A stretch of 10,147 nt of DNA, from the NCBI GenBank assembly GCA_043754515.1, contig JAYUUO010000202.1:1-10147 (forward strand), written 5' to 3'. The translations under genes were made by a program, and so were the position numbers. Origin of the DNA: Armatimonadota bacterium. Lineage in GTDB: Bacteria > Armatimonadota > Armatimonadia > Armatimonadales > Armatimonadaceae. The notes under the pieces are model-generated. The model saw only the letters and a program-made list of their open reading frames with translations. It had not been told where the DNA came from and searched no databases. Below are positions 1-10,147 of this stretch, in pieces (within the stretch, counting starts at the first letter, position 1; every line of letters begins with the position of its first letter).

Positions 1-6
1 TTGCCT

Positions 7-56
7 GTCCAGGCTACTTCGTAGCCGGACGTCGGGTACCCGCTTGCGGGTGGGAC
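7..56. repeat. Two adjacent short hairpins (GTCCa-GGCTAC-ttc-GTAGCC-GGAC; ACCCGC-tt-GCGGGT)
   Basis: Inverted repeats read directly at 7-30 and 38-51. Each is followed by a copy of its first bases (GTC at 31-33; AC at 55-56). Confidence 0.6.
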
Positions 57-93
57 GGACAGATCCGGGCATCCGAAACCGCCAACCGCGTAA

Positions 94-258
94 CTCCTAT
101 CTTTATTCTTCACCATCACGGAGCAGCCGGTGTATCCGGAGTTTACACAACACGGGCGGCTGTCTCAGGGCGAGATGAGCGTGCGCGACAACGGCGACGG
201 CACGGCGACGCTCACCGGCACGAGATGGTACTCGCTTCGGGTGCATCCTTTCTGGCCC
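94..258 (+). pseudogene. Internal fragment of an SRPBCC/polyketide-cyclase-like protein gene
   Basis: Frame 1 after the stop at 91-93 reads LFFTITEQPVYPEFTQHGRLSQGEMSVRDNGDGTATLTGTRWYSLRVHPFW. From memory this resembles the EQP..PE...H....G.....DNGDGT.TL.GT.WY.L.V.P segment of such proteins. There is no N-terminus, and the frame then runs antisense into polA. Confidence 0.4.
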
Positions 259-285: not shown

Positions 286-3222
286 TCACAACAGATCCGA
301 CACCGAATCGGCTGGCTCATCCGGGACGGGCGTCACGTCCGCCCATGTTTTACCGGTTTTAACCTCCACTTCGAGCGGCGCGTCGAGCGTGTACACCCCC
401 GTCATCGCCGCGCGAATATGCGGCGCGAGTCGCGGCACCTCGTCCGGGTCCGTTTCAAAGAGCAGTTCGTCATGCACCTGCAAGAGCATTCGCGCCTGAA
501 ACCCCTCCCGCGTCAGCATCTCGCGCACGGCTACCATCGCCAGTTTCATGATGTCCGCCGAGGTGCCCTGTACCGGCATGTTCGCCGCCGCGCGCTCCGA
601 CGCCTGACGGAACTGGAACACGCGGCTGTTGATGTCTGGTATGAAGCGGCGGCGACCGAACAGTGTTTGCACGTAGCCCTTGTCCTTCGCGAACTCAACC
701 GTGCCGTCAATATAGGCGCGGACACCGGGGAACCGGGCGAAGTACGACTCCTTGAGGGTCTTGGCCTCTGCGAAGGAAATGCTTAACCGCTTGGCGAGCG
801 CGAACTCCGAGATGCCGTAGATCACCGCGTAGTTAACGGTTTTGGCGGCGCGTCGCATGTCGCCGGTCACGTCCTCAGGCGGCACACCGTACATCTTGCC
901 CGCCGTGTATTTGTGGATGTCCTCGCCGGAATGGAACGCCGCGACCAGTGCCGGGTCCTTCGTGACGTGCGCGAAGATGCGCAGTTCTATCTGGGAATAG
1001 TCGGCGGAAATGAGGATCTTGTCCGGCGCGACGATAAAGGCGCGGCGTATTTCGCGCCCGATCTCGGTGCGTACGGGTATGTTTTGCAGGTTCGGGTTCG
1101 AGGACGAAATACGCCCGGTGGCAACGAGTGCCTGGTTCAGCGTCGTGTGCAATCGCCCCGTGTCGGCGCGCACCAACAGCGGCATGGCTTCGGCGTAGGT
1201 ATTCTTGAGTTTCATTAGCCCCCGGTGTTGAAGCACCTTCGCGACGATAGGGAACTGGGGCGCGAGTTCTTCGAGTGCCTCGACGCCGGTGGAATAGCCC
1301 GTTTTCGTTTTCTTGTTCGCGGGGATCTTCAGCCGCTCGAACAACACTTCCTGTAATTGCTTCGTGGAACCGATGGAAAACTCCTCGCCGCCCGCGAGCG
1401 CGAATATCTCCTTCTCCCGGTCGGCGATCTGGGTCGTCAGTTGCGCCGCCATTTTGTTCAGCGCATCCGAGTCGAGGACCATGCCCGTGGTCTCCATCTC
1501 GGCGAGGATTGGGGACACGGGAAGCTCCAGCGTTCGCATTACCTCTAGCGTCCCTTCGGAGGACAGGCGCGGCTCCTGAACTTTCGTGATCGCGAGCAGG
1601 GCGTCGGCGGCGGCGAACGATTCGCTCTTTTCGTGCGCCGCGATGTCGCCCTCCTCCATCGTTTTGCGCTCCTTCTTGTCGAGCGGGTGCAGTTCGCGCC
1701 CCGCGTAGTCGCCCGCCACATCAATGAGCGGGAAGGAGGCACGCCGCCCGGCGTTCAGCAGGTACGAGCCGATCTCGGTGTCGAACACCACGCCGCGTAG
1801 CATGATCCCGTGACAGAGCAATACCCCGGCGTCGGTCTTCTGGTCGTGACATATTTTCTTGACCGCCGGGTCGGAGAGGATGACACGCAGTATGTCTTTT
1901 TCGCCCACCGCCGCGTGCCCCGTCACACCAGCGGCGGCGGGTTCGCTTGTCGGCGCGTCGAATAGGGAGGGTTGTCCCGCGCCGCCCACGATCTTCGGCT
2001 CCGCGTCAGTCGCGGGGCGCGTCGCGTCGGGCATCATCAGCGGCACGTAGTAAACGGTTCCTCCGCCGGTCGCGAATGCCGCGCCGCGCAATTTCGCGTC
2101 TAGCACGCCGCCCTCGGTCACGTCGAGACGTACCCCGATCCGGTCCGCCCGCCGGATCGCGTCCATCATGGCGCGGACGGCGGCCTCGTCGTCCGGCTCT
2201 ATGCTCTGCCAGTCCGCGGCGACCATCTCGCGCGGCTCATCCGGGGGCGGCGCGGCGACCTCGGACTCGTCGGCGGCGAACGGGTCGTAATCATCCGCGT
2301 CGAGCCGCTCGTTCACCGTCACGGGCGCGTCCGCCGCTTTGCTCCCGGCGGGCAATCGTCGGAGCAACGTGCGAAACTCCAGCCGCTCGAACAGATCGCG
2401 GACCGCCTGCCAATCAGGTTCCACCCGCTCCGAGTCGAGCGCGGGCAGGTCAACATCGGGCAGGGGGACGTCGCGCACGATCACGGCGAGACGCTTGGAA
2501 AGCGTTATCTGCGCCTCGTTCGCGGCGACCGCCGCCTGAATCTTGGGCGGCTTGATCTCGTCCGCATGCGCGAAGACATTTTCGGCGGTGCCGTACTGTT
2601 GCAACAGCGTGGTTGCGGTCTTCTCGCCGACGCCGGGGACACCGGGTATATTGTCGCTCGTGTCGCCCTTCAAGGCGCGGTAGTCGGCGAGCTGGTTCGG
2701 CTTCAGGCCGTACCGTTCCTCCACTTTCGCCTCGTCGTAGATCACGGTGTCGGTGACGCCCTTCACGGTGGTCATGACGCGGACGTTCGGCTCGACGAGC
2801 TGTAGCGCGTCCAGGTCGCCGGAGACGATAATCACGTCGTAGCCGGCTTCTTTGCCCTGCCTCGCGAGCGTCCCGATGATGTCGTCCGCCTCGAAGCCCG
2901 GCGCGGTCACGGTCGGGATGCGGAACGCCTTGACCAGTTCGCGGGCGAGCGGTGCCTGCTCCGTCAGTTCGGGGGGTGTTGTTTTGCGGGTGCCTTTGTA
3001 CTCGGCGTACTCGTCGTGGCGGAACGTCTTGCCTTTGTCCCAGGCGCAGATCATGACATCCGGCTGTTGATCCTGCAAAAGCGTGAGCAGCATCATCGTG
3101 AATGAAAATATCGCGTTCGTGTGCAACCCCGCGCTGGTCGTCAGCGCACGCATCGCGAAGAAGCCGCGATAAAGGAGCGAATTCCCGTCAATCAGAACTA
3201 ACTTTTTAGAAGTGTCCGGCAT
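286..3222 (-). CDS. polA: DNA polymerase I (978 aa); 3'-5' exonuclease domain probably degenerate
   Basis: 5'-nuclease motifs LIDGNSLLYR, EADDIIGT, SGDLD and GDTSDNIPGVPGVGEKTA. Polymerase motifs TGRISSSNPNLQNIP, A (DYSQIELR), B (RRAAKTVNYAVIYG) and C (LQVHDELLFE). Confidence 0.98.
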   Translation of the reverse strand: MPDTSKKLVLIDGNSLLYRGFFAMRALTTSAGLHTNAIFSFTMMLLTLLQDQQPDVMICAWDKGKTFRHDEYAEYKGTRKTTPPELTEQAPLARELVKAFRIPTVTAPGFEADDIIGTLARQGKEAGYDVIIVSGDLDALQLVEPNVRVMTTVKGVTDTVIYDEAKVEERYGLKPNQLADYRALKGDTSDNIPGVPGVGEKTATTLLQQYGTAENVFAHADEIKPPKIQAAVAANEAQITLSKRLAVIVRDVPLPDVDLPALDSERVEPDWQAVRDLFERLEFRTLLRRLPAGSKAADAPVTVNERLDADDYDPFAADESEVAAPPPDEPREMVAADWQSIEPDDEAAVRAMMDAIRRADRIGVRLDVTEGGVLDAKLRGAAFATGGGTVYYVPLMMPDATRPATDAEPKIVGGAGQPSLFDAPTSEPAAAGVTGHAAVGEKDILRVILSDPAVKKICHDQKTDAGVLLCHGIMLRGVVFDTEIGSYLLNAGRRASFPLIDVAGDYAGRELHPLDKKERKTMEEGDIAAHEKSESFAAADALLAITKVQEPRLSSEGTLEVMRTLELPVSPILAEMETTGMVLDSDALNKMAAQLTTQIADREKEIFALAGGEEFSIGSTKQLQEVLFERLKIPANKKTKTGYSTGVEALEELAPQFPIVAKVLQHRGLMKLKNTYAEAMPLLVRADTGRLHTTLNQALVATGRISSSNPNLQNIPVRTEIGREIRRAFIVAPDKILISADYSQIELRIFAHVTKDPALVAAFHSGEDIHKYTAGKMYGVPPEDVTGDMRRAAKTVNYAVIYGISEFALAKRLSISFAEAKTLKESYFARFPGVRAYIDGTVEFAKDKGYVQTLFGRRRFIPDINSRVFQFRQASERAAANMPVQGTSADIMKLAMVAVREMLTREGFQARMLLQVHDELLFETDPDEVPRLAPHIRAAMTGVYTLDAPLEVEVKTGKTWADVTPVPDEPADSVSDLL

Positions 3223-3329: not shown

Positions 3330-3362
3330 AGTAGTCACCTTTTTGGAGAATTGAGAAATATT

Positions 3363-4064
3363 ATGGATATGACCTTACCAGACGATTGGCGAGACGCGCT
3401 GTCCGCCGAACTCACGAAGCCGTATATAGCCGAACTCGCGGCTTTCGTAGATCAGGAGCGCACGGCGCACACGGTATTTCCGCCCGAACCCGACGTTTTC
3501 AACGCGCTGAAGCTGACGCCGCTCTCCGCGGTGAAGGTCGTCATTCTCGGTCAGGACCCCTACCACAACGACGACCAGGCGCACGGGCTGTCGTTCTCGG
3601 TGCGCCCCGGCATTAAGCCGCCGCCTTCCCTGCGTAACATCCTGAAGGAACTACAGAGCGACCTCGGGATCGAGTCGCCGAAGAACGAGGGCTATCTAGG
3701 CTCCTGGGCGGAGCAAGGGGTGTTACTGCTCAACACCGTGCTCACCGTCCGCGCGCACGAACCGGCGTCGCACAAAGGGCGCGGCTGGGAGACGTTCACC
3801 GACGCCGTGATTGGCGCGGTAGCGGCGAAGCCCGATCCGGTCGTTTTCGTCCTATGGGGTGCCTACGCGCAGAAGAAGGAGAAACTGCTCGCGGCGTCGG
3901 AGCAGCACATCGTCATCTCCACCGTGCATCCGTCCCCCCTGTCGGCCAAATCCGGGTTTTTCGCCAGTAAACCCTTCAGCAAGATTAACGAGGCTCTGGA
4001 GAAGGCGGGGGAGACGCCTGTGGATTGGCGTCTCGTCAAAGCCGAGGTATTAACGCTCGCTTGA
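3363..4064 (+). CDS. ung: Uracil-DNA glycosylase, family 1
   Basis: Catalytic GQDPYH, AHGLSFS, PPSLRNI, GVLLLN and the HPSPLS leucine loop. The start is uncertain (TTG 3351, ATG 3363 or ATG 3369). Confidence 0.97.
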   Translation: MDMTLPDDWRDALSAELTKPYIAELAAFVDQERTAHTVFPPEPDVFNALKLTPLSAVKVVILGQDPYHNDDQAHGLSFSVRPGIKPPPSLRNILKELQSDLGIESPKNEGYLGSWAEQGVLLLNTVLTVRAHEPASHKGRGWETFTDAVIGAVAAKPDPVVFVLWGAYAQKKEKLLAASEQHIVISTVHPSPLSAKSGFFASKPFSKINEALEKAGETPVDWRLVKAEVLTLA

Positions 4065-4199: not shown

Positions 4200-4832
4200 G
4201 CCGCTCTCTCAAATGGCATCCAGCAAGCCATCCCACGCCTCGACATCGAGTACGCGGTCGAGCAACTCCTCCAAAACCGTGAGCGAGCCAATGTCCCGCA
4301 CCCGTGCCTCTATCGCGGGCGGCGCGACGCCCAAGCGACGCATCCCCTGTCGGAGCAGAATACGCCGGGCTTCCCGCAACGCGCCTTCGACCTGCCCCTC
4401 GGTCCGGCCTTGCGTCAATCCCTCGGCTCGCCCCTCGGCTCGCCCCTCGCGCAAGATTTGTTGGTAAGCATTCGATTCCCGTATCTGATAAATACCCCGT
4501 CGCATCTGGTTTCGGAATGTCTTATCGTACCGCAAGCCCATAAAAATATTCGTCGCCGTCCACAGTTCGCCCTCCTCCGTCTCGCCTGTCGCCTCGGCCT
4601 CGATCCGCGCCCGCATCATCTTGATAACACGCCCCAACCCGGTCGGGCGCACGTTCGAGATCGGCGCGAACGGTAGCGTGGACAGTGCTCCTTCAAGTAG
4701 TTCTCCGACATCTAATTGCCATACGCGAACGACATTGTAGCGGAACGCGAAGTAAATGTTACCGGAAATGTCGGGCACGTCGAACGTGCCGGTGATGCGC
4801 GGATGATGCGGTCGGCGTAGAGGGTGATGTCC

Positions 4833-4855
4833 GACAAAACGCAGTTTTTGTCGTG
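4833..4855. repeat. 23-nt hairpin insertion GACAAAAC-GCA-GTTTTTGTC-gtg with GACA duplication
   Basis: GACA at 4833-4836 is repeated at 4856-4859. Removal restores the codons L-S-D-I-T. Confidence 0.7.
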
Positions 4856-4860
4856 GACAG

Positions 4861-4880
4861 GTTTGCAAGTGTGCAAACGC
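4861..4880. repeat. 20-nt hairpin insertion GTTTGCA-AGTG-TGCAAAC-gc
   Basis: Perfect 7-bp stem. Removal restores V-D-A-D-L-S. Confidence 0.8.
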
Positions 4881-4934
4881 GTCGGCGTCCACGAGCGACA
4901 CCTCGCCCGGCGGGAGCCCGAGGGACGCGACCCA

Positions 4935-4954
4935 GTCCACAAGTGTGCGGACGT
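4935..4954. repeat. 20-nt hairpin insertion GTCCACA-AGTG-TGCGGAC-gt with GTC duplication
   Basis: 14/20 identical to 4861-4880. Removal restores H-P-A-D-W-V. Confidence 0.8.
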
Positions 4955-5175
4955 GTCTGCGGGGTGCATCTCGATCAGGCGTTTGGTGACGGCATCGTAG
5001 GGTTTAGGGATACGACCGTAGTATGGCGCAGTCGGGAGTGATTCCAAAACAGGGCGTGGGCAGGTCTACCTTCAGTCGCGCCCTCACGTGGCGTACCGCG
5101 CGGAGTCACCGGGCGGGCTAATATGCCGCGCGTGTCGGGCGCGTTTATCATACCAGTGCGGCGTTACCGGTGGCC

Positions 5176-5555: not shown

Positions 5556-6548
5556 ATGACCGTGACCGTTCCTGAAACGGGGGCGAGCGTCGCCCCCTGG
5601 ATCAACCTCGCGCCGCCCCCGTTCGCGGCGACGGACTTCGCGCCGCCCGCTGCCGCGCCGCGCGACGGGTCGTCCCCGGAAACGGAGGAAGACGCGGTGA
5701 CCACCGGGAATAACGGCACCGACCCGTACAGTTATGCCAGCCGCCTGACGCGCGCCGCGTTACTATCGCCGGAGCAGGAGGTCGTGCTCGCCAAGCGGAT
5801 TCAGCGGGGCGGGGCGGCGGGCGAGACCGCGCGGACGCGGCTGGTCGAGGCGAACATGCGTCTGGTATTCGCGGTCGCCAAGGCGTACCGCTCGTCGGGA
5901 ATCGCCCTCGAAGACCTGATCCAGGAGGGTGCCATCGGCCTGATGACCGCGACCGAACGCTTCGACTGGCGGCGCGGCTACCGCTTCTCGACGTACGCGA
6001 CGCAGTGGATACGCCAGTCCATCGGCCGCGCCGTTGACAACAAAAGCAAAAGTATCCGGTTGCCCGCGCACGTCTCCGAAGCACTGCGCAAGATCGAGCG
6101 CATCCGCGTCGAGTACCGGCGTGAGACGGGCGAGGAGGCCACCGCCGACGTGCTGGCACCGCGCATGGGTCTGACGCTACGCAAAGTCACCCTTCTATTG
6201 CAAACGCTGGCGGACCCGCTCTCGCTCGACATGCCGGTCGGGGAGGACAGCGGCGCGAGCCTCGGCTCGCTACTCCACGACCGCGACGCGCCCGACCCGC
6301 AGGCGATCCTGGCGTCCGCCGAACTCAACGCGGAGATCCACGTCATCATGGGGACGTTGGACGAGCGCGAGCAGGTGATCATGCGCAAGCGGTTCGGCTT
6401 CGACGGCGAGGAGGCGTATGTCCTGCAAAAGATCGGCGACGATCTGTCGATCAGCCGGGAGCGCGTGCGCCAGATCGAGGCGCAGGCATTGCGCAAGCTG
6501 CGCACCCTCGCCCGCCAGCGACAGATGCGCGACTACTTATACCGGTGA
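5556..6548 (+). CDS. RpoD/SigA-like alternative sigma70 factor lacking region 1.1 (330 aa)
   Basis: SD AAGGAG at 5544-5549, 6 nt before ATG 5556. Region 1.2 LLSPEQEVVLAKRI, region 2 LVEANMRLV..DLIQEGAIGL..RFSTYATQWIRQ, then IRLPAHV, SLDMPV and region 4 SRERVRQIEAQALRKLR. Confidence 0.93.
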   Translation: MTVTVPETGASVAPWINLAPPPFAATDFAPPAAAPRDGSSPETEEDAVTTGNNGTDPYSYASRLTRAALLSPEQEVVLAKRIQRGGAAGETARTRLVEANMRLVFAVAKAYRSSGIALEDLIQEGAIGLMTATERFDWRRGYRFSTYATQWIRQSIGRAVDNKSKSIRLPAHVSEALRKIERIRVEYRRETGEEATADVLAPRMGLTLRKVTLLLQTLADPLSLDMPVGEDSGASLGSLLHDRDAPDPQAILASAELNAEIHVIMGTLDEREQVIMRKRFGFDGEEAYVLQKIGDDLSISRERVRQIEAQALRKLRTLARQRQMRDYLYR

Positions 6549-6692: not shown

Positions 6693-6759
6693 ACCAACGA
6701 AACTATGATGCCATCGCCTTGTGCCTTCCCTAGGGCGATTGCATCATAGTTTCGTTGGT
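6693..6759. repeat. 29-bp-arm inverted repeat, possibly two abutted IS-like ends or a MITE-like remnant
   Basis: ACCAACGAAACTATGATGCCATCGCCTTG (6693-6721), 9-nt loop, TAGGGCGATTGCATCATAGTTTCGTTGGT (6731-6759); 26/29 positions complementary. Confidence 0.8.
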
Positions 6760-6905: not shown

Positions 6906-7793
6906 CTAGAAAGTGGGGACTGCCTCGACCGGCAGTGCCCGCGCTAGCGTCGCGATCTCTTCCAGGGTGAGCGTCTCGCCGCGGCGGGTGCCGTCAATTC
7001 CGGTCTCCTCTAATGCCGCTAGCACCGACTCTTTCGGGAACCCGCCCGGCGACGCGCCGATCAGGGCGTTCGCGAGCGTCTTGCGCCGTTGCCCGAACAC
7101 CCCGCGACTGACCCGGAAGAACGCCGCGTCGCTCGGCACCGCGACGGGCGGCACCGGGCGCGGCACCAGATGCACGATGGCGGAGTCTACGCGCGGCGGC
7201 GGGAAGAACGCGCCGCGCGGAACGGTTCCCGCGACTGTTACCACCGCCTGATACTGCGCGAACACGGAAAGCGAGCCGTAGGCGGGCGAATCGGGCGGTG
7301 CCTTCAGCCGTTCCGCCACCTCTTTCTGCACCATGAGCGTGATCGTCGAGAAAAGATGCTTGTGTTCGAGTAGCCGGATCAGAATCGGCGAGGTGATGTT
7401 GTAGGGGATATTGGCGACCACTTTGTACGGCGCGTCGCCCGACCACGCGCCCAGGTGTTCGGCGAGGAAGCTGGGCAGGTCGAACTTGAGTGCATCGCCC
7501 ATAACCACGGTGGCGTTGGGATACGGCGCGAGGACTTCGGCTAGCACCGGGGGCAGGGCGCGATCCAACTCCACCGCGACGACCCGCGCCGCCCGCGTCG
7601 CCAGCTCCACGGTGAGGGTCCCCGCGCCCGGCCCGATCTCGAATATACGGTCCCCTTCGCGGACGTCGGCGGTATTCACCACTTTGAGTAGGTGCGAACG
7701 GTCGGCGAGGAAGTTCTGGCCGAACCGCTTGGACAGGTTCATGCCGTGTCGCGCGAGCAGTGATTTGAGTTCGGAGGGTTTGGTTAAATCCAC
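6906..7793 (-). CDS. rsmA: 16S rRNA m6,2A1518/A1519 dimethyltransferase RsmA/KsgA (295 aa)
   Basis: GQNFL, EIGPGAGTLT, VELD, GDAL, VANIPYNITSP, MVQKEVAERL, FFPPPRVDSA and QRRKTL. Start placed at GTG 7793 (MDLTKPSELK), 6 nt below an extended -10. Confidence 0.97.
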   Translation of the reverse strand: MDLTKPSELKSLLARHGMNLSKRFGQNFLADRSHLLKVVNTADVREGDRIFEIGPGAGTLTVELATRAARVVAVELDRALPPVLAEVLAPYPNATVVMGDALKFDLPSFLAEHLGAWSGDAPYKVVANIPYNITSPILIRLLEHKHLFSTITLMVQKEVAERLKAPPDSPAYGSLSVFAQYQAVVTVAGTVPRGAFFPPPRVDSAIVHLVPRPVPPVAVPSDAAFFRVSRGVFGQRRKTLANALIGASPGGFPKESVLAALEETGIDGTRRGETLTLEEIATLARALPVEAVPTF

Positions 7794-7799
7794 GCGGGT

Positions 7800-7808
7800 A
7801 TTAAACCA
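7800..7808 (-). promoter_or_regulatory. Extended -10 element (TGgTTTAAT) for a probably leaderless rsmA transcript
   Basis: The minus strand reads TGGTTTAAT-acccgc-GTG, with no SD. Confidence 0.5.
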
Positions 7809-7849
7809 CGGGTGGGCACCCGCGACCGGCGGACCGACCACTTAGGCTC

Positions 7850-7869
7850 GGGCGATTGCATCATAGTTT
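7850..7869 (+). repeat. Solo copy of the 20-bp repeat GGGCGATTGCATCATAGTTT
   Basis: Identical to 6733-6752. Confidence 0.85.
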
Positions 7870-7986
7870 GGCCGCGTGTCTAATTGGCGGGCGCGGGACG
7901 GTGAAGCATCCCGGCGGGCGCGGGGCGTGGACGTATATTCGCGGGCGGCGGGGGTGGTTCCGGCAGGTCGCGGAACGTCCACCGGA

Positions 7987-10004: not shown

Positions 10005-10034
10005 TAGGCAAGTGTGCCTAGGCGCACTTGCCTA
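10005..10034. repeat. 30-bp near-perfect palindrome TAGGCAAGTGTGCCTAGGCGCACTTGCCTA with two inverted GCAAGTG(T/C)GC cores
   Basis: One mismatched pair. The left half is itself the hairpin TAGGCA-AGTG-TGCCTA, with the same core as the 4861 and 4935 insertions. Confidence 0.8.
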
Positions 10035-10147
10035 TTTTATACCAACTACTAAGTGCGTGTGCCAAAATACATGACATTTAGGATTTACCCGTCGCCGGTG
10101 TTTTTCAGAGGAAGCCCCATCAAATGACGGTGGCTCTAAATGTCATG

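Follow-up and report, generated by a model that had tools for sequence, protein, structure and literature searches.

The window, by which we mean the whole stretch of DNA that was analyzed (10,147 nt), is contig C202 of the Armatimonadaceae genome G000. Near its middle lies a pseudogene, and the neighboring genes at the four positions listed in Table 1 contain no inserts of the families described below. The pseudogene matches the Pfam model DUF4351 (E = 4e-4), as does its intact paralog on contig C156 (E = 2e-5), and its Atlas neighbors are DUF4351/DUF2887. We take the gene to encode an Rpn-like putative nuclease of the PD-(D/E)XK type; DUF4351 in Pfam was its only match, with none to the Rpn/PDDEXK_2 model in Pfam or NCBIfam. 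The preliminary description of this DNA, which dealt with two of the inserts, had missed three further lesions: an ATC start where paralog C174 has ATG, a deletion that takes out a conserved HNELE stretch, and a third insert at 4831-4854.

Table 1. Features of the window
Feature	Position	Strand	Remarks
Host pseudogene, DUF4351-domain protein	4209-5011	-	ATC start, three inserts, central deletion
Deletion junction	4796/4797	-	~169 nt lost relative to C156 (alignment)
Family B insert, bulged hairpin	4831-4854		24 nt with an adjacent 1-nt loss, or 23 nt at 4829-4851
Family A insert, TT/AA arms, 20 nt	4861-4880		7-bp stem 4861-4878, tail GC
Family A insert, CC/GG arms, 20 nt	4935-4954		tail GT, uncompensated G>A at 4939
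Inverted family A core double (probable variant), purine-first arms, 30-nt palindrome	10005-10034		z = -5.4
DNA polymerase I	among 286-3222, 3351-4064, 5556-6548, 6906-7841		by eye
16S rRNA dimethylase	among the same four		by eye
Uracil-DNA glycosylase, sigma-70 factor	among the same four		Pfam

The inserts at 4861 and 4935 had been described as equal in length, identical at 14 of 20 positions and different by transitions only, with each directly following a GAC codon on the minus strand. All of this is correct (six of the six differences are transitions), and each 20-mer proves to be an 18-nt hairpin with a 7-bp stem and a 2-nt tail. The paired positions were also said to covary. They do so at positions 3-4 and 15-16 (TT/AA versus CC/GG). 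The G>A change at 4939, by contrast, is uncompensated. It breaks a pair on the plus strand (fold of -2.9 versus -6.6 kcal/mol) and is likely to be later decay, because G is retained in the matching insert of paralog C238.

That both 20-mers were inserted is clear from copies of the gene in paralogs and relatives, which read straight through. The first shifts the frame between host codons GAC and CTG, at a site that is empty in the alignment in paralogs C163 and C156 and in relatives; the second shifts it between GAC and TGG, at a site that is empty in C163, C156 and contig C27 of genome G002. Paralog C238 is filled at both sites, with inserts that match those of the window at 20 of 20 and 19 of 20 positions, and on G002 contig C543 the TT/AA variant occupies the site at which the window has CC/GG. 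The third insert, of a family that we call B, is missing from C163, C156 and G001 contig C822, occupies the same codon boundary in both C238 and the distant paralog C229, and recurs in three Rhs genes. On contig C174 of G000, a near-identical start of the window gene (27558-27630) ends exactly at the loop of the hairpin found at 4935-4954, which suggests breakage or recombination at the hairpin.

When did the inserts arrive? The three that C202 and C238 have in common are identical at 62 of 63 positions in genes that are 67.6% identical, so they arrived after the paralogs split. C229, which shares the B insert, is 51% identical and groups with the empty G001 copy with 100% bootstrap support, in a paralog tree that is poorly resolved apart from this node. 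Inserts B and E are present or absent in all four combinations among C238, C202, C163 and C156, an Rpn-like site that is filled by the CC/GG variant in G000 has TT/AA in G002, and two organisms (L006 and L097; left 90 nt 53% identical) differ in the variant found at one IS3 site. Arrival after divergence is thus by repeated insertion or by copying over very short tracts. Purely independent insertion is counted against by flank changes that are shared between paralogs, namely a probable 1-nt loss beside B in C202 and C238 and GAC>AGC beside D in C163 and C238. Ordinary gene conversion is argued against by the DNA between the two A inserts, which is identical at 41 of 54 positions in C202 and C238, so that any copied tract is shorter than about 10 nt.

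One possibility is that no dedicated enzyme is involved. Short single-stranded copies of the hairpins would instead anneal at replication forks or nicks and be incorporated by template switching, and a few bases of homology would be enough for them to home from one paralogous site to another. The shared flank changes would fit such a process, as would the recurrence of one and the same variant at a given site in paralogs of 68% identity, the inverted loops (E in C163 versus C238) and the palindromic doubles in C238 and at window position 10005. We nevertheless consider it unlikely, given the short limit on the copied tract, the predominance of targets in unrelated genes without homology to a donor, and a fixed loop sequence that points to a protein reading the loop.

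This loop defines the family to which both 20-mers belong. Family A consists of 20-21-nt hairpins in which the loop core is fixed and the stem is variable but paired. The core, CAAGTGTGC, occurs 29 times in G000 compared with 11.7 expected from an order-5 Markov model; 18 of these copies have four of four outer pairs (0.6% in background) and 23 have at least three of four (6.3%). A core at background frequency and without hairpin flanks, the outcome named earlier as counting against a family, is therefore not what the genome contains. The variant CAAGTGCGC, which had been grouped with it, does not belong, as it was seen 26 times against 35.6 expected and never (0 of 26) with all four pairs. 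Among 25 family A copies, 11 of them distinct, double-sided changes occur at four of the seven stem pairs, a value that none of 500 shuffles reached. Since these 25 rows were picked as near-perfect hairpins, pattern searches provide the fairer test of covariation: the arms are fully complementary in 28 of 31 pattern matches in 32 genomes of the family (chance, 1 in 16), compared with 13 of 57 matches to a similar pattern in metagenomes (chance, 1 in 4); kin and array copies are not independent. A search of Rfam gave no match over threshold, and three sub-threshold miRNA matches to one palindrome are due to chance.

The 22 family A pattern matches in G000 lie in genes, in single repeats or in direct tandems. 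Copies occupy REP-type repeats, three Rhs genes, two Rpn-like genes and the remnant of an IS3 element, and others form a tandem array that is broken across C85 and C113. In relatives, translations examined by eye place family A in IS630, IS3 and IS982 transposases and in Rpn-like genes. A copy at C208:4629, with a perfect stem but inside an open frame, is probably native. Two tandem copies were also seen on a metagenome contig (L083:602-639).

Of the two origins proposed at the outset, a diverse family of donor hairpins is supported by this dispersal, by the arrays and by the paired arms. The other, in which one arm is copied from the other during insertion, is not needed for the window pair, as both arm types recur unchanged at unrelated targets; slight support for it comes from one double insert, in C238, with a terminal pair that follows a GC target, and from the palindrome at 10005-10034, which is probably a family A variant and for which we found no empty allele. 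Because half-changed stems occur in other copies, arms also change stepwise after insertion. A master locus, which had been suggested as something to look for, was not found, and the site that the tandem arrays occupy is an ordinary target. The C85/C113 array was considered as a donor and set aside, since it occupies the same repeat site as single inserts and no adjacent enzyme gene was recognized by eye. Its units alternate two loop variants with a 40-nt period (L045:1-99, on C85), as might result from a dimer circle or slippage. Long palindromes can also arise when a filled pair of repeats collapses.

Could the inserts be removed from RNA or bypassed by the ribosome, as tiny introns or bypass elements that make the gene switchable? 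The insert at 4935 has GAC at both take-off and landing, and conservation is far higher in the inserts than in the gene around them. However, the insert at 4861 would land on AAC, and the occurrence of family A in both orientations to host genes and in non-coding repeats, together with a host gene that has also lost its start codon and ~169 nt, excludes such a role in practice. We regard this explanation as very improbable.

Family A is largely confined to one bacterial family, likely the Armatimonadaceae. Its pattern was detected in eight of the 32 family genomes, two of which have unpaired arms, and perfect copies are found in six genomes of four genera. In a sample of the phylum, the pattern was present in four of 23 other family genomes and in one of 377 others, where the lone match reads as ordinary coding sequence. 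A genome-wide scan returned 19 loci, 10 of them labeled Armatimonadota or Armatimonadaceae; the other nine are mostly chance, as about 17 were expected by estimate and two (L028 and L347) read as ordinary coding sequence. Viral contigs gave one match to family A and none to families B or D. An assembly or library artifact, such as adapter-like hairpins, might be suspected because the family genomes that carry the inserts are fragmented assemblies and several copies lie at contig ends. Perfect copies spread over four genera, variants that covary and decay by point mutation, sites that are precise and recurrent, and the existence of nine families make this explanation scarcely credible.

On the strand that reads AAGTGT, the target of family A is CNR^GT. 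The C at -3 is found at 10 of 14 distinct sites (p = 0.002); the R at -1 is equally frequent (10 of 14), a value that is not significant (p = 0.09). The 2-3-nt tail of family A varies, and no rule for it emerged; a target-pairing rule fitted about six of 13 sites by eye and was dropped. One repeat that accepts family A at CCG^GTGG is empty in C47 (twice), C271, C88 and C226; it is filled by single inserts in C49, C68 and C139 and by the array in C85/C113.

Family A is one of several. An unbiased self-comparison of G000 identified 39 inserts of 14-60 nt relative to empty alleles, the best-folding of which form several hairpin families. Nine family patterns, built from these inserts and a hairpin census, gave 159 matches in G000 and none in the reversed genome; a single amplified repeat accounts for 36 of the 159, all of them B2 copies. 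The sister families have conserved bulges, and most of them, at 24, 27 or 30 nt, preserve the frame. Family D (~30 nt) is represented by 28 strict copies, among which 23 different tips occur and the Y/R pair is matched without exception (28 of 28), and it is found in G000, G002 (seven copies) and G001 (one copy) and in none of the 29 other family genomes. Tandem and nested copies include the C85/C113 array, the C238 double, and tandems of K and B4.

We are confident that the inserts belong to a mobile hairpin family. Insertion relative to empty alleles, unrelated targets, both orientations, tandem arrays, stem covariation and post-divergence arrival are all observed. How do the hairpins move? 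In the account that we favor as reasonably probable, family A is a non-autonomous mobile hairpin of 20-21 nt with a preference for CNR^GT, likely moved in single-stranded form and in trans, most plausibly by an HUH transposase. An enzyme acting in trans would excise the hairpin as single-stranded DNA and rejoin it elsewhere. Mobility would be retained only where the stem is paired and the loop intact, giving rise to covariation, and template switching within the hairpin could repair arms and flip loops. Filled sites may sometimes be copied between paralogs over very short tracts, and copies would persist mainly in dispensable mobile DNA.

Our candidate for the mover itself, an HUH transposase of the RAYT/TnpA-REP type, is a guess that we would expect to be wrong more often than right. 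The only link to an enzyme is indirect: on contig C320 of G002, an intact Y1 (RAYT) transposase is flanked on both sides by the CCG^GTGG target repeat of family A (L271). No Y1 gene flanked by family A hairpins was found at 30 search loci and 11 fetched regions, which cover part of the Y1 matches. The closest match to the G002 RAYT in G000, an assembly that is 92.7% complete, is on C279 (33-40%) and is frameshifted. Y1 genes are present in 24 of the 32 family genomes, compared with the eight that have the family A pattern, so the presence of the enzyme and that of the element do not track. Some Y1 genes themselves carry sister inserts (L266 and L278).

Group 3 TnpA-REP enzymes are described as requiring a short stem that is paired, together with particular loop bases, and as selecting the dinucleotide to be cleaved through base pairing to a guide located at the hairpin foot, a GTGG guide giving cleavage at CC or CA in vitro (PMC8266576). 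Family A shares this anatomy. Counting against the candidate are the lack of a 5' GT[AG]G tag in family A and its junction, which is AC/GT, unlike the CC or CA cut with that guide. By analogy, the terminal GT of family A could read AC as its target, which would fit one copy whose ends follow a GC target.

It is also conceivable, if improbable, that the hairpins spread by way of an RNA intermediate that a reverse transcriptase (RT) copies, a route that has reportedly been proposed for the small dispersed repeats (SDRs) of Nostoc. Two RTs, one retron-like and one group II-like, are encoded in G000, and tandem arrays and the G-T wobbles in some stems would be compatible with RNA. The retron-like locus, however, contains no family hairpin and the other RT locus only an unrelated repeat, while family A has no orientation bias relative to host transcription and no Rfam match over threshold. 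The retron-like RT (L237, G000 contig C263) lies downstream of a gene that by eye resembles SWIM/BRCT proteins and is followed by a long palindrome. Other candidate movers were rejected. IS110 had no matches in G000, none of the four DUF559 genes of G000 is flanked by hairpin families, and a PF01541 query of five genomes identified no stand-alone gene for a small GIY-YIG nuclease. That query gave one match in each of the five, in frames of 626-636 amino acids in four and in a 155-amino-acid frame at the homologous-looking match in G001.

Where the inserts sit was assessed by a Pfam scan of flanking frames, both at 40 control positions and at 90 site clusters, which were derived from 123 sites by merging neighbors within 150 nt, with arrays left out and 42 of the 48 regions required included. 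Transposase-type matches were obtained at 16 of the 90 sites and at none of the controls (p = 0.003). Among sites with any Pfam match, 25 of 30 were of mobile type, compared with one of 17 controls; these 25 comprise 16 transposase, seven phage-type (partly assigned by context) and two Rhs sites. Both comparisons are of clustered sites that are not independent, with some families first found in multi-copy DNA. No Pfam match was found at 60 of the 90 sites, several of which are Rpn-like by tblastn or prophage by PHROGs. Three contigs of G000 with prophage regions encoding terminase, portal, tape measure and endolysin (C138, C143 and C154) hold 20 pattern matches, 15 of them inside called ORFs, the tape measure gene included. 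We recognized no insert in a core gene, even for families with lengths of 3n. Non-coding or uncalled DNA makes up ~23% of G000 by a rough caller, and a codon-score filter separated the controls poorly, as 56% of random positions passed.

This bias toward mobile DNA may reflect selection alone or real targeting. One reading of it is that the host has a system for disabling foreign or mobile DNA by purposely inserting hairpins, and the transposase and prophage counts and the lack of recognized core-gene inserts are what such a system would produce. We give this little credence. Most sister families keep the frame, which would be poor sabotage, and the cell's own REP-type repeats are targets too. 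Moreover, survival in dead mobile DNA is what purifying selection would by itself predict, and selection against inserts in useful DNA could explain the entire bias; the dependence among sites noted above also weakens the case. A related proposal is that a lineage-specific machine writes structured cassettes of 20-33 nt site-selectively into mobile or foreign DNA and has possibly been domesticated to disarm mobile elements. It would account for hits in transposases, prophages, Rhs and Rpn-like genes at the same codon boundaries in diverged paralogs and in different species, and we consider it doubtful. If the bias did reflect targeting rather than selection, it would represent a new kind of genome defense.

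Of known systems, the Nostoc SDRs are the closest in kind. They were reportedly found by Elhai and colleagues in 2008 to keep their structure through compensatory changes, to include nested copies and to be restricted to a lineage; we know of no identified mover for them. Shared with the families described here are units of ~20-30 nt, dispersed and tandem copies, and precise insertion at a short site, SDR5 of Nostoc being described as inserting into HIP1 (PMC2884548, PMC4390886). Further SDR-like features found here are the unrelated contexts, empty alleles, compensatory changes and nested copies. The likeness is one of features. Our families come from another phylum and are strongly concentrated in transposase and prophage DNA, and family A is usually 20 nt long, shifts the frame and has a CNR^GT target. 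Yeast mitochondrial GC clusters and byps elements are also small mobile hairpins in genes. Unlike these, family A has no consistent take-off and landing codons, occurs in both orientations and resides in dead hosts.

The REP/REPIN-RAYT systems, especially group 3, resemble family A in their short paired stem and fixed loop and the sister families in their bulges (PMC8266576, PMC3116915, PMC3733652, PMC6006769), and one of the targets of family A is a repeat found on either side of a RAYT gene in a relative. However, inspection of its flanks revealed no 5' GT[AG]G tag at the hairpin foot, and family A forms neither inverted doublets nor extragenic, high-copy repeats, being mostly intragenic and of low copy. 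Membership in REP/REPIN thus fails on tag and organization, although the working mode may be alike. Rickettsia RPEs and intragenic CGTC/GTAG REPs are likewise palindromic inserts in coding regions, comparable to the 24-, 27- and 30-nt sister families that keep the frame, but they are described in working housekeeping genes (PMC3733652), whereas here no core gene was recognized and family A breaks frames. The NTS/SRM repeats of the Ssn nuclease are ~28-nt hairpins that are cut as single strands; for Ssn the loop is reported to be dispensable and the stem sequence to matter (PMC11893778), the reverse of family A.

This set of very small mobile hairpins is real, of a kind that is known but poorly understood, and apparently undescribed: a literature search that took in few subscription journals returned no published report of these families or of comparable elements in Armatimonadota. 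With nine families, alleles that have or lack the insert, a short target consensus, a loop of fixed sequence and, in a relative, a candidate HUH transposase, there are defined substrates for assaying directly how elements of SDR size move. If an enzyme does join a 20-nt hairpin into a simple site, this would be among the smallest known cargoes. The inserts are also an easily overlooked reason why transposase and prophage genes are broken in this lineage.

Several other repeats were noted. Window positions 1-99 correspond to the right part of a repeat for which blast gives 38 matches in G000. A 22-nt B2 hairpin is inserted in the majority of its copies and absent from others, and some have further nested inserts. 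An inverted pair at 6693-6759 and a single unit at 7850-7870 belong to a REP-type repeat that is abundant in G000 (dozens of copies) and whose head resembles the tip of family D. At the far end of the window, 10050-10147 is the end of a multi-copy element that is 95-100% identical on six other contigs and adjoins IS3-type remnants in C1 and C54. Finally, a family D insert in G001 (contig C282; L289:1202-1229) lies in a tRNA-like stretch within an array of 12 tRNA genes.
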